IMG/VR virus record: IMGVR_UViG_2734482594_000010 | Direction: 5' to 3' (one strand) | Origin: a virus | Taxonomy: Duplodnaviria; Heunggongvirae; Uroviricota; Caudoviricetes | Length of the DNA: 6,334 bases | The notes under the pieces: generated by a model | Told to the model about the DNA's origin: nothing | Seen by the model: only the letters and a program-made list of their open reading frames with translations | Databases searched by the model: none | Shown: piece by piece, positions 1,807 through 4,636 of the stretch | Layout of the letters: each line of letters starts with the position of its first letter | Position numbering within the stretch: the first letter of the stretch is position 1 | Made by a program: the position numbers and the translations under genes

Positions 1807-2865
1807 GTGCGGGTATTACTTCGACCTGTTCTGGTACCGGAACTCGGTCTGGTTATCGTTAAGCCAGGCCGTGAATCAATGTCAGCATTCCATAACGGCA
1901 GAATACTGGTGGAGCCGGAACCAAAAAGCATGCGTAATCTGCCGTCCGGGGTCGTTCCTGCCGCTCGCCAGCCGCTGGTGGAAGACAAAACATTGCTGCC
2001 GTTTTTCAGTAACGCACGGGTGATTCGTGCTGCTGGTGGTGCTGGTGCATTGTCTGACTGGCTGTTGCGCCATATTAAATCCTGCCAGTGGCCACACGGC
2101 GATTATCATCACAGCGAAACCGTCATTCACCGTTATGGTACCGGCGCAATGGTGTTGTGCTGGCACTGCGACAACCAGCTGCGTGACCAGACATCCGAAT
2201 CACTCGAGCAACTTGCTCATCAAAACCTGTCAGCATGGATGATTGACGTCATCGGTCACGCAATAAGCGGTACGCAGGAGCGTGAATTATCTCTGGCTGA
2301 ATTATCCTGGTGGGCGGTCCGCAATCAGGTGGCGGACGCGCTACCGGAAGCGGTATTACGTCGTTCGCTGGGGTTGCGTGCGGAAAAAATTCGCTCTGTG
2401 TACAGTGAAAGCGACATCATACCGGGAGAGCAGACAGCCACCAGCATACTGAAGCAGCGCACAAAAAATATTGCGTTACTGCCTCACGTCCACCAGCAAC
2501 AGAACCCACCACAGGAAAAGACGGTGGTCAGCATTGCCGTTGATCCGGAGTCACCGGCTCAGTATCTCCAGCGCCAGAAATCACAACGGGAAGAGATGCC
2601 TGTATACACGCGCTGGGTAAAAACGCAGAAATGCATGACGTGTGGCAATCAGGCAGATGATCCGCATCACATCATTGGTCATGGACTGGGAGGGATGGGA
2701 ACAAAGGCTGATGATTTGTTTGTTATTCCGTTATGCCGTAAATGCCGTAACGAACTACATGCCGGAGTAAAAGATTTTGAAGAGAAACACGGCAGTCAGC
2801 TGTTGTTGCTGATTCGTTTTTTAATGCACGCGAGAAATTCGGGTGTTCTGAAGTGGAAAGCATAA
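1807..2865 (+). CDS. DUF968-family prophage protein (YdfU-like, 352 aa) with two HNH-like Zn-finger motifs
   Basis: GTG start 1807 with SD GGAGG 1797..1801. N-half motif CQWPHGDYHH...CWHCDNQL; C-terminal motif CMTCGNQADDPHHIIGHG...CRKCRNELH. Family and position between rem and Q as in E. coli Qin (recalled). Confidence 0.8.
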   Translation: MRVLLRPVLVPELGLVIVKPGRESMSAFHNGRILVEPEPKSMRNLPSGVVPAARQPLVEDKTLLPFFSNARVIRAAGGAGALSDWLLRHIKSCQWPHGDYHHSETVIHRYGTGAMVLCWHCDNQLRDQTSESLEQLAHQNLSAWMIDVIGHAISGTQERELSLAELSWWAVRNQVADALPEAVLRRSLGLRAEKIRSVYSESDIIPGEQTATSILKQRTKNIALLPHVHQQQNPPQEKTVVSIAVDPESPAQYLQRQKSQREEMPVYTRWVKTQKCMTCGNQADDPHHIIGHGLGGMGTKADDLFVIPLCRKCRNELHAGVKDFEEKHGSQLLLLIRFLMHARNSGVLKWKA

Positions 2866-3246
2866 ATGACCGAGCGCATAGAATTTGTTTTACCTTACCC
2901 GCCGACGGTGAACACTTACTGGCGTCGTCGTGGCAGCACATATTTTGTATCAAAAGCCGGGGAGCGTTATCGCCGGGCAGTGGCGCTTATTGTTCGCCAG
3001 CAGCGGCTGAAATTAAGCCTGTCCGGAAGGTTGGCAATAAAAATTATTGCAGAACCACCGGATAAGCGCCGCCGTGACCTGGACAATATTCTGAAAGCGC
3101 CGCTGGATGCGCTGACGCATGCGGGGTTGCTAATGGACGATGAGCAGTTTGATGAAATCAATATCGTTCGTGCTCAGCCAGTATCTGGTGGACGTCTGGG
3201 GGTGAAGATTTATCCCATAATGCTTGAAGGGCAGGTCAAAAAATGA
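2866..3246 (+). CDS. rusA: RusA-family Holliday-junction resolvase (126 aa)
   Basis: ATG directly follows the upstream TAA. Translation contains the RusA acidic catalytic core ...DKRRRDLDNILKAPLDALTHAGLLMDDEQF..., close to E. coli RusA ...[30 protein letters not shown]... as recalled. Confidence 0.9.
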   Translation: MTERIEFVLPYPPTVNTYWRRRGSTYFVSKAGERYRRAVALIVRQQRLKLSLSGRLAIKIIAEPPDKRRRDLDNILKAPLDALTHAGLLMDDEQFDEINIVRAQPVSGGRLGVKIYPIMLEGQVKK

Positions 3247-4064
3247 AACTGGAAGATTTACCGAAATACTACTCCCCAAAATCCCCCGGCCTGACTGATG
3301 CATCGGCCTCAACGTCGAAAGATGCGCTGAGTATCACTGATGTGATGGCCGCGCAGGGCATGACACAGAATCGGGCTGAGATGGGGGTTTCTGCGTTCCT
3401 TGGGAAAATGGGCATTAGTATGAATGACAGAGAGCGGGCAACAGAATTGCTGACAGAATATGCACTCAGTCGGTGTGATCGCGTGGCGGCGTTAAGAAAA
3501 CTCCCGGCAGAAATAAAACCGGCAGTGATGCGTATTATGGCTTCGTATGCGTTTGAAGATTATGCCCGTAGCGCGGCGAGCAAAAAACAGTGCCCCTGCT
3601 GTCACGGAAAAAAATTTATTGAAAGCGAGGTTTTTACAAACAAGATCCAGTATCCGGATGGTAAGCCGCCGGTATGGGCAAAGTGTACGAAAGGTGTGTA
3701 TCCGTCTTACTGGGAAGAATGGAAAAAAGTCAGGGAGGTGGTAAAAGTTGCCTGTCCGGAGTGTGGCGGAAAGGGTGAGGTTTCCACCGCCTGTAAGGAT
3801 TGCCGTGGGCGTGGTGTCGCCATTCATCGTGAAGAGTCGGTAAAACGTGGTATGCCTGTTATCAGAGACTGCCAGCGTTGTGGTGGTCGTGGCTATGAAA
3901 GACTACCATCAACGGAGGCATTTAATGCTATATGCGAGGTGACAAACCAGATAACACGCGCGTCATGGGAAAAAACAGTTAAGAAATTTTATGATGCGCT
4001 GGTGACCCGGTTTGATATTGAAGAAGCATGGGCTGAGCGGCAGTTAAAAAAGGTAACTAGGTAA
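3243..4064 (+). CDS. Putative late-gene antiterminator Q (Qin QuuQ-like, 273 aa) with four CxxCxGxG-type Zn-finger repeats
   Basis: ATGA overlap with rusA. Lies immediately upstream of a lambda-PR'-like promoter with pause element and tR'. N-terminus MKLEDLPKYYSPKSP... resembles Qin-type Q as recalled. Repeats CPCCHGKK, CPECGGKG, CKDCRGRG, CQRCGGRG. Confidence 0.7.
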   Translation: MKLEDLPKYYSPKSPGLTDASASTSKDALSITDVMAAQGMTQNRAEMGVSAFLGKMGISMNDRERATELLTEYALSRCDRVAALRKLPAEIKPAVMRIMASYAFEDYARSAASKKQCPCCHGKKFIESEVFTNKIQYPDGKPPVWAKCTKGVYPSYWEEWKKVREVVKVACPECGGKGEVSTACKDCRGRGVAIHREESVKRGMPVIRDCQRCGGRGYERLPSTEAFNAICEVTNQITRASWEKTVKKFYDALVTRFDIEEAWAERQLKKVTR

Positions 4065-4069
4065 CAAGG

Positions 4070-4109
4070 TTGATTTTTCCGGAATCTGTGGTAAATTCGT
4101 CATAACGAT
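4070..4109 (+). promoter_or_regulatory. Late promoter PR' with Q-utilisation region: -35 TTGATT (4070..4075), 16-bp spacer, extended -10 TGgTAAATT (4089..4097), promoter-proximal sigma70 pause element AACGAT (4104..4109)
   Basis: The -10 TAAATT and the AACGAT placed 6 nt downstream are the same elements and spacing as in phage lambda PR' (established). Starts 6 nt after the Q stop. Confidence 0.7.
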
Positions 4110-4144
4110 GGGCGTTTTATGCCTGACGTTAGAAGAGTTTCTAC

Positions 4145-4168
4145 AACCCGCCGCCGAGCGGGTTTTTT
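4145..4168 (+). terminator. tR'-like rho-independent terminator (stem CCCGC/GCGGG, loop CGCCGA, then T6)
   Basis: Hairpin 4147..4162 followed by TTTTTT 4163..4168, about 60 nt downstream of the predicted PR' start. Confidence 0.65.
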
Positions 4169-4288
4169 ATGACTGAAATCGCGTCAGTACAGTAAACGCG
4201 CTGGTGGCGGTGAATACCTGTCTTTCAGCTTGCTGGCTTTTTCGACAAGAGTTATTGGTGTGTCACGTTAACCGGAAAAGGAAAAGAC

Positions 4289-4486
4289 ATGCTAAAACAG
4301 CAGGATATGACAGAAACCGCCAGAGTGGTGTTTAATGAATTAAGCGTTACCGAACCGGCGACAGTCGGGGAGATAGCGCAGAATACTTACCTTTCACGCG
4401 AACGCTGCCAGTTAATACTGACCCAGCTGGTTATGGCGGGTCTGGCAGACTATCAGTTCGGTTGTTACAGACGCCTTCCGCAGTGA
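4289..4486 (+). CDS. Small putative DNA-binding protein (65 aa) with helix-turn-helix / winged-helix-like segment (PATVGEIAQNTYLSRERCQLILTQLVMAGLADYQ)
   Basis: ORF track entry. SD-like AAGGAAAAG upstream of ATG 4289. Stop codon lies inside the following terminator hairpin. Confidence 0.5.
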   Translation: MLKQQDMTETARVVFNELSVTEPATVGEIAQNTYLSRERCQLILTQLVMAGLADYQFGCYRRLPQ

Positions 4487-4496
4487 AGGCTTTTTT
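4473..4496 (+). terminator. Rho-independent terminator (stem GCCTTC/GAAGGC, 6-nt loop, T6) overlapping the stop of the 4289..4486 ORF
   Basis: Perfect 6-bp stem 4473..4478 / 4485..4490 followed by TTTTTT 4491..4496. Confidence 0.6.
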
Positions 4497-4513
4497 ATTT
4501 GTGGTAAATGGGC

Positions 4514-4544
4514 GGCTGGTGGGTGTTAGGGGCACCCACCAGCC
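4514..4544. promoter_or_regulatory. Perfect 12-bp inverted repeat GGCTGGTGGGTG-(7 nt)-CACCCACCAGCC in the leader of the methyltransferase gene; candidate operator or RNA stem-loop
   Basis: Arms 4514..4525 and 4533..4544 are exact reverse complements. No T-run follows, so not a classical terminator. Confidence 0.4.
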
Positions 4545-4636
4545 ATCTGCTCATGCGTTGGGTTCACAAGCAAACCTCAGGCCCACTGCTTTGCGCAAAA
4601 GCAGAATGAGCCTATCAGAGACAGGCTTAATGATCC

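Follow-up and report, generated by a model that had tools for sequence, protein, structure and literature searches.

A probable Q-lambda-type late promoter region with a nearby tR' in a lambdoid prophage module common in Escherichia coli

The stretch of DNA analysed here, 6,334 nucleotides (nt) from the IMG/VR virus record IMGVR_UViG_2734482594_000010 and called the window throughout, carries at positions 4070-4168 what is very probably the late regulatory region of a lambdoid prophage, with the late promoter PR', the Q-loading site, a sigma-70-dependent pause element and the terminator tR' in front of genes presumably served by a Q antiterminator of the Q-lambda family. Direct reading gave all elements in the layout TTGATT-16-TGgTAAATT-6-AACGAT-GGG followed by an intrinsic terminator, and together with the Q gene they are located as follows.

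3243-4064, plus strand: Q antiterminator gene, 273 amino acids (aa), Q-lambda family (Pfam PF03589, Antiterm, 1.6e-53; PDB 7UBM chain Q, E = 3.5e-41)
4070-4075, plus strand: -35 hexamer TTGATT of PR' (TTGACT at the same place in lambda; T-34 invariant in 99 unique relatives)
4076-4091, plus strand: PR' spacer TTTCCGGAATCTGTGG, 16 nt, by direct reading
4077-4089, plus strand: candidate Q-binding element TTCCGGAATCTGT between -35 and -10, assigned by its position, which is that of the Q site annotated in phi80
4089-4097, plus strand: extended -10, with TG at 4089-4090, G, and TAAATT at 4092-4097 (the hexamer of lambda PR'; G-14 in 98 of the 99 relatives)
4098-4103, plus strand: discriminator CGTCAT, 6 nt, the stretch that varies (nine or more hexamers in promoters that are otherwise almost the same)
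4104-4112, plus strand: predicted +1 at A4104, -10-like pause element AACGAT at +1 to +6 (4104-4109) and G-rich block GGG at +7 to +9 (4110-4112); lambda is identical from +1 to +9
4119-4121, plus strand: predicted pause position at +16 to +18 (A16-T17-G18), from the lambda pause at +16 (PMC5001585) and the local sequence
4145-4168, plus strand: intrinsic terminator tR', AACCCGC-CGCCGA-GCGGGTT, stem 4145-4164 with seven pairs (five G-C) and a loop of six, T-run 4163-4168

The pattern TTGATT-N15-18-TAAATT-N6-AACGAT was found once in the window and in 0/200 dinucleotide shuffles; a looser PR' pattern with up to two mismatches has 0.58 matches expected by chance and is not informative on its own. 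Comparison with lambda PR' (NC_001416), which reads TTGACT-17-TAAATT-TGACTC-AACGAT-GGG, revealed the same TAAATT, the same 6-nt gap and an identical AACGATGGG at +1 to +9; that the -10 and the pause hexamer of lambda recur at the same spacing had been stated in an earlier note on this DNA. T4089 and G4090, at -15/-14, form a true extended -10. The wider claim of that note, a lambda-like PR' with a sigma-70 pause element and a tR' close by, is supported by this homology, by positions kept in relatives down to 39% Q identity and by the phi80 annotation.

The same note had taken the 273-aa protein for Q, and both database matches agree. PF03589 corresponds to Q-lambda, which PMC9388147 sets apart from two further, unrelated families of Q. 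The alignment to 7UBM chain Q (lambda Q) is colinear and falls into two blocks, residues 1-113 of the window protein lying on 1-113 of the chain and 182-273 on 116-207. Between them lies a 68-aa insertion (residues 114-181, window 3582-3785) at the base of the zinc-ribbon arm, which in lambda Q contacts DNA and sigma region 4. This insertion contains two extra CxxC pairs with a weak DnaJ CXXCXGXG match, and also occurs in the Q proteins of phi80 (41% identity, no large gaps) and mEp237 (54%) and in YdfT of K-12 Qin, such long-type Q proteins being the majority of the family members sampled.

An exact-pattern scan of viral contigs with GGTAAATT-N6-AAYGATGGG gave at least 120 stretches, and among the matches listed were 42 lambda-type loci, 75 window-type loci and a few chance hits. 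Among these same matches, the upstream open reading frame (ORF) ends exactly 39 nt before +1 in 73 strictly classified window-type loci, as the Q stop codon does in the window, and is 273 aa long in 62 of them, the remainder being cut or broken; the tR' hairpin was located at +41/44 to +58/61 in 75/75 window-type loci. The alignment-based scan of viral contigs seeded with the window Q led to relatives of 92-100% identity, and diversity came from other seed proteins. For Q homologues at 39-47% identity, spanning Shigella, K-12 Qin and eight other genera (e.g. Atlantibacter, Mangrovibacter, Scandinavium, Phytobacter, Kosakonia and Buttiauxella), the -35, the -10, the 6-nt gap, AACGATGGGC and a nearby terminator were all kept, and conservation of the arrangement across genera at 39% Q identity argues for selection.

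Column conservation was determined for 99 unique motif-anchored sequences (169/175 loci could be anchored), in which the functional columns (-35, -10, A2 and T6 of the pause hexamer, GGG) are fixed, some of them forced by the anchoring pattern; variation is seen in the discriminator and in parts of the spacer. The unforced conserved columns are A+5 (99/99), G+4 (92), T-34 (99), T-27/T-26/C-25 (92-97), A-21/A-20 (97-99) and G-14 (98). Five of them, T-27, T-26, C-25, A-21 and A-20, belong to the candidate Q-binding element and are thus kept in 92-99 of the 99; the bases between them vary by Q clade, the spacer sequence as a whole is bimodal and tracks two Q clades, and mEp237, with a Q 54% identical, has TTTTCCCGAATCTGTG at this position. 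Natural variants of the pause hexamer (AATGAT, AAAGAT, AACAAT, AATAAT, AACTAT, GACAAT and GACGAT) all retain A2 and T6, the most important positions of a -10 element.

Several observations weigh against this assignment. A generic sigma-70 scan of the window did not list PR', because its 8/12 hexamer matches fall below the threshold of 9/12 and the TG is not credited; the -35 itself is weak (4/6). The candidate Q-binding element was assigned by position only. In lambda, the TTG of the discriminator forms a -35-like TTGACT beside the pause element. The discriminator CGTCAT of the window differs from the commonest ones among relatives (TGCCCT and similar) and has no TTG, which could lower the efficiency of Q loading at this copy. 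Mutated pause elements (AAAGAT, AACAAT, GACAAT) occur in some relatives, pointing to decay of copies in cryptic prophages, and the intact copy described here may likewise be located in a defective prophage. As to transcription, start site, pause and Q-dependence are all inferred.

The proposed mechanism follows the one published for the Q-lambda family and its pause element (PMC9388147) and for the pause element with its G/C-rich block (PMC5001585), from which we infer where transcription starts and pauses at PR', that Q binds there and that read-through of tR' depends on it. RNA polymerase with sigma-70 would initiate constitutively at about A4104, sigma region 2 would re-bind the non-template AACGAT (+1 to +6), and the enzyme would scrunch and pause near +16/+17, aided by GGG, as a G/C-rich block sets the pause position (PMC5001585). 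Without Q, it would escape and terminate at the hairpin +42 to +61 with its T-run, giving an RNA of about 65 nt. The 273-aa Q, once made, would bind its element in the PR' spacer, where the site of Q-lambda also lies (PMC9388147), engage the paused complex and travel with it. The modified polymerase would then read through tR' and a second terminator at 4473-4496 into a 65-aa ORF and a methyltransferase gene and, beyond the window, reach genes for lysis and morphogenesis, and in some relatives stx2.

That a terminator is located close to the predicted start, as the earlier note had stated, agrees with the terminator scan, which listed the tR' hairpin; taking +1 as 4104, it spans +42 to +61 with a G+C core at +44 to +59 and a predicted RNA end at about +64 to +67. 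As a small correction to that note, the T-run consists of six T (4163-4168), the leading two being able to base-pair with A4145-A4146, and is followed by A4169. In phage Stx2_EH1910 the stem is maintained despite sequence changes. The leader had also been called compact, and it is indeed short, but this is no peculiarity of the window. With the Q proteins of the window, Qin-like, P22-like, phi80 and Yersinia phages as seeds, 461 Q-lambda-family loci were collected, and clustering of the sequence downstream of Q left 84 representatives that could be used. In 79/84, phi80 and K-12 Qin included, the hairpin of the first intrinsic terminator ended at +47 to +69. Of the other five, two have the lambda-type leader with a hairpin end at +186 and one is Edwardsiella phage Edno5 (+98); another has a damaged stem, and the last has a lambda-like leader missed by the detector. 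Therefore, lambda (+186/+194) is the outlier in leader length and the window leader is typical of the Q-lambda family; that a leader of about 55-75 nt is the rule and the 194-nt 6S RNA of lambda the exception is a modest but useful comparative result. One paper on NusA and the length of the nascent RNA (PMC4914094) addresses how long the RNA is at the pause rather than how far away the terminator lies, and was not used as support.

The predicted transcript of about 65 nt folded with RNAfold into three hairpins and a U-tail (-21.4 kcal/mol, z = -2.0), the third hairpin being tR' and the others the following.

4105-4129, plus strand: predicted 5'-terminal RNA hairpin, +2 to +26, outer stem ACG/CGU and inner stem GGGCGU/AUGCCU, from the minimum-free-energy structure of RNAfold
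4130-4143, plus strand: small predicted hairpin UAGAA-GAGU-UUCUA, from RNAfold only

The first of these pairs the 5' end, i.e. the pause hexamer, with CGUU at +24 to +27, and CGTT at this position is present in 92-98 of the 99 sequences, indicating that the leader is conserved beyond the pause element. A complementary YGUU at +20 to +28 was found in 83/84 family representatives, where 1,000 shuffles gave 32 on average and never more than 48, and the 5' stem was part of the minimum-free-energy fold in 50/84 (23 +/- 4 in shuffles). Similarly, 90% of the hairpin cells were paired in 54 relatives, compared to 31-42% in slid controls. As the distance of YGUU from +1 shifts by up to 8 nt among clades, RNA pairing fits better than a DNA site at fixed distance. 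Inside the QuuQ and Qin clades no compensatory (double-sided) change of this hairpin was detected and the column-shuffle control was not exceeded; between clades there are two candidate compensatory events, AACA with UGUU (P22-like) and AAGG with UCUU (Yersinia phage). A clade-swap test of the stem was uninformative, as G-U wobble lets AACG pair with UGUU, and in the P22-like and phi80 clades another internal hairpin dominates the predicted fold. It is conceivable, though we would not count on it, that the pause hexamer has a double role: as DNA the sigma-70 pause signal, and as RNA (+1 to +5, AACGA) one arm of a 5'-terminal stem-loop with the conserved YGUU, which might occur family-wide in Q-lambda-type late transcripts including lambda 6S RNA and stabilise the ~65-nt RNA and perhaps the late mRNA. 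This stem is an unproven lead, not a finding. If true, many E. coli prophages with such cassettes, K-12 Qin included, would constitutively make a stable structured small RNA.

Such an RNA leads to an alternative that is compatible with the Q switch, namely that the main product in the lysogen is a stable, structured ~65-nt PR'-tR' small RNA that acts as a regulator in its own right. We regard this as unlikely, even with the precedent of StxS, where the terminated RNA from a constitutive PR' is an Hfq-binding regulator (PMC7547250), and with the three predicted hairpins, the conserved CGTT and a 5' stem compatible with nearly all representatives as arguments in its favour. The sequence shared with the StxS region of 933W is limited to a 24-nt terminator-like hairpin, located early in the 933W leader, and StxS cassettes have a 144-aa Q and a 258-nt leader, compared to 273 aa and about 65 nt here. 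Moreover, covariation is absent within clades, no Rfam family was matched by the small RNA, and the requirements of pause and terminator alone could explain the conservation of the leader. Homology to StxS was rejected, as nothing beyond those 24 nt matches the 933W leader; the functional analogy was kept.

Two further explanations would replace the Q switch. A leader-peptide attenuator in the style of the trp leader, in which the ATG inside AACGATGGG opens a 22-codon ORF through the terminator (MGVLCLTLEEFLQPAAERVFYD) and its translation controls termination, was suggested by a weak match to Rfam Trp_leader (RF00513; 4065-4171, 21.8 bits, E = 0.66) and by the crossing of ORF and terminator. 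This is hardly credible and was rejected, as the score is far under the gathering score of 41, the ORF length is unconserved (2-60 codons over 54 ATG-bearing representatives) and the frame is not preferentially open (medians of 22 and, for frame +2, 25.5); lambda has just M-G-stop, in the phi80 and P22-like clades the ATG is missing from this position, and a Shine-Dalgarno sequence is absent. AACGAT as the -10 of a second, overlapping promoter, or the whole motif as an inert relic in a dead prophage, also seems very improbable. In favour of these readings are A2 and T6, which the hexamer shares with a -10 element, the frequency of cryptic prophages and the mutated copies in some relatives, but 16-18 nt upstream of AACGAT there is no -35-like sequence (GGAATC), and the same arrangement in lambda is an experimentally defined pause element (PMC5001585, PMC9388147). 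A relic is further opposed by the intact Q gene, promoter and terminator and by the arrangement kept across genera. We therefore retain the Q-dependent late promoter with its pause element and tR' as by far the most probable function of 4070-4168.

Downstream of tR' the window contains the following features.

4289-4486, plus strand: 65-aa ORF, first gene past tR', possibly a winged-helix or helix-turn-helix protein (Pfam TrmB 0.0026, below cut-off; PHROG 331, unknown function, 1.4e-37)
4473-4496, plus strand: a further intrinsic terminator, listed by the terminator scan at 4473-4490, into which the 65-aa ORF extends (six pairs, four G-C, T-run)
4637-5695, plus strand: N6/N4 DNA methyltransferase gene (Pfam PF01555, 7.9e-42; PHROGs)
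5698-5726, plus strand: TTGAAG-17-TATTAT, a promoter-like site immediately 5' of the tRNA, from the sigma-70 scan
5736-5811, plus strand: tRNA with anticodon CAT, ileZ type (ARAGORN; Rfam tRNA, 72.5 bits)

The counterpart of the 65-aa ORF in phiP27 is annotated 'TrmB family'. The earlier note had predicted everything downstream of tR' to be Q-dependent. For the 65-aa ORF and the methylase this is plausible, since the scan listed no sigma-70 promoter of their own between 4171 and 5697 and none was found there by eye. The tRNA, on the other hand, has the promoter-like site noted above, and the surrounding window sequence (about 5585-5740) is 85% identical to a 933W stretch containing the annotated 'pT putative tRNA promoter'; because of this homology, the tRNA may be expressed without Q. 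Its CAT anticodon is read as Met by ARAGORN, but near-identical RefSeq loci give tRNA-Ile and 933W ileZ; in 933W the methylase gene is reduced to a 3' remnant ahead of this tRNA. That note had also spoken of tRNAs in the plural, of which one was found, as a run of 41 N at 5855-5895 seems to hide the central part of another (Arg in relatives). The window ends before the remaining genes, but in a 99%-identical locus (L301) the operon runs on through tRNAs, esterase, holin, YdfR and lysozyme genes and in Stx2_EH1910 into stx2AB, as expected of a late operon.

The non-coding region between the 65-aa ORF and the methylase gene (4487-4640) is strongly folded (-62 kcal/mol, z = -3.2) and includes a perfect 14-bp hairpin without T-run at 4513-4545; similar sequence directly follows tR' in a Kosakonia locus (L138). 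No Rfam family was assigned to this region, the only match being P26 on the minus strand with 24 bits, below threshold.

Nearly the same terminator hairpin was located at 4145-4168 in the window, at 3003-3027 in L004 and at 1225-1248 in L480, each time after late promoters that belong to unrelated Q families. Nine downstream contexts follow tR' among 147 window-type cassettes, the most frequent being the module of 65-aa ORF and methylase in 89 loci and, in 49, an immediately adjacent tRNA. The terminator marks the point where cassettes with unrelated types of Q are swapped ahead of one and the same cargo. In the IMG/VR contig L269, the sequence 3' of the Q gene changes exactly at AACGATGGG from a Qin-type promoter to a lambda-type 6S leader, and the shared pause element appears to have been the recombination point there. 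Matches to window 3600-4700 were found in 3,138/5,426 complete E. coli genomes, with at least 80% of the query covered in 1,077. The annotation thus places late promoter, Q-loading site and tR' for a very common E. coli prophage module, which, as it is located upstream of stx2 in some Stx2 phages, bears on the coupling of toxin expression to induction there. To specialists this will be unsurprising; it is a textbook late switch of the Q-lambda type in a widespread variant.

Other features were noted along the window. A hok/sok-type toxin-antitoxin locus at 904-1229 consists of an Rfam sok match (904-1079, 112 bits) and a 70-aa Hok/Gef ORF (1017-1229, Pfam 3e-23), with a weak isrK-like match just 3' of the locus (1238-1319, 25.7 bits, below threshold) and a terminator at 1298-1315. 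An Rfam match to the small RNA STnc100 at 5867-6049 (69.8 bits, gathering score 47), its 5' part hidden by the N-run, is followed by a weak second copy at 6088-6276 (21.8 bits), both being located where stx lies in Stx phages. Upstream of rusA, a DUF968/HNH-like ORF of the YdfU type (window 1807-2865) corresponds to L002 911-1960 in the mEp460 record, where it is named 'Phage antitermination protein Q'; as Pfam gives DUF968 (2.6e-62), this label looks like a mis-annotation.

As far as the literature searched shows, the window variant itself has not been directly studied, and it can be placed by comparison with five known systems. With lambda it shares the Q family (PF03589) and the order of a Q gene just upstream and an intrinsic terminator and late genes downstream. 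Lambda differs in its spacer of 17 nt instead of 16, the true TG extended -10 being a feature of the window, in a TTGACT-like element beside the pause hexamer, which the window lacks, in its leader of 194 nt compared to about 65 nt, in a Q without the 68-aa insertion, and in a distance of 77 nt from Q stop to +1 compared to 39 nt. Between -35 and -10 the window has TTCCGGAATCTGTGG and lambda ATTGAATAAAATTGGG, which presumably reflects a different Q-binding specificity.

The nearest annotated relative of the window variant is phi80 pR'. The phi80 gp17, taken to function as Q in line with its GenBank annotation, has 269 aa and is 41% identical and colinear including the insertion, and the leader is compact as well. 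The GenBank record contains a pR' -35, a 7-bp Q site one base past the -35 (TCGCGGA; TTCCGGA in the window), a -10 and a terminator at about +46 to +74. Differences are the pause hexamer AACGCT with a 7-nt gap, the -10 TAGATT, another leader sequence and terminator, and a second terminator followed by lysis genes in place of the cargo module of the window.

In K-12 Qin, ydfT (quuQ) encodes a Q-lambda-family protein of 250 aa with a DnaJ-like extra zinc motif, and the adjoining sequence TTGCAT-17-TAAAAT-6-AACGATGGGC with a terminator at +44 to +63 forms an intact cassette of the same kind.

NC_000913.3 1,642,360-1,642,422, minus strand: K-12 Qin cassette (L302 5361-5423), by sequence reading

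Its Q is about 40% identical, its spacer is TTCAAAAAATATGGA compared to TTCCGGAATCTGTGG in the window, and csp genes and the Qin lysis cassette follow downstream. RefSeq has no RNA or regulatory feature at this cassette, which predicts an unannotated RNA of about 62-65 nt; functional work on quuQ, ydfT or the Qin late promoter was not found in the literature searched.

StxS (Sy, Lan and Tree, 2020) is likewise an RNA from a constitutive PR' ended at tR' in lysogens, and it occupies the same niche between Q and tRNA/stx cargo, its leader being processed to 74 nt (PMC7547250). Stx phages with a Q of the Q21 family (PF06530), such as Stx2_14040, and likewise 933W, whose PR' region is of the same kind, have a near-identical hairpin, AACCCGCC....GCGGGTTTTTT, soon after the promoter, and in Stx2_14040 the same module of 65-aa ORF, methylase, tRNA and stx follows downstream. 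Their Q protein family, promoter and qut sequence, however, are unrelated to those of the window.

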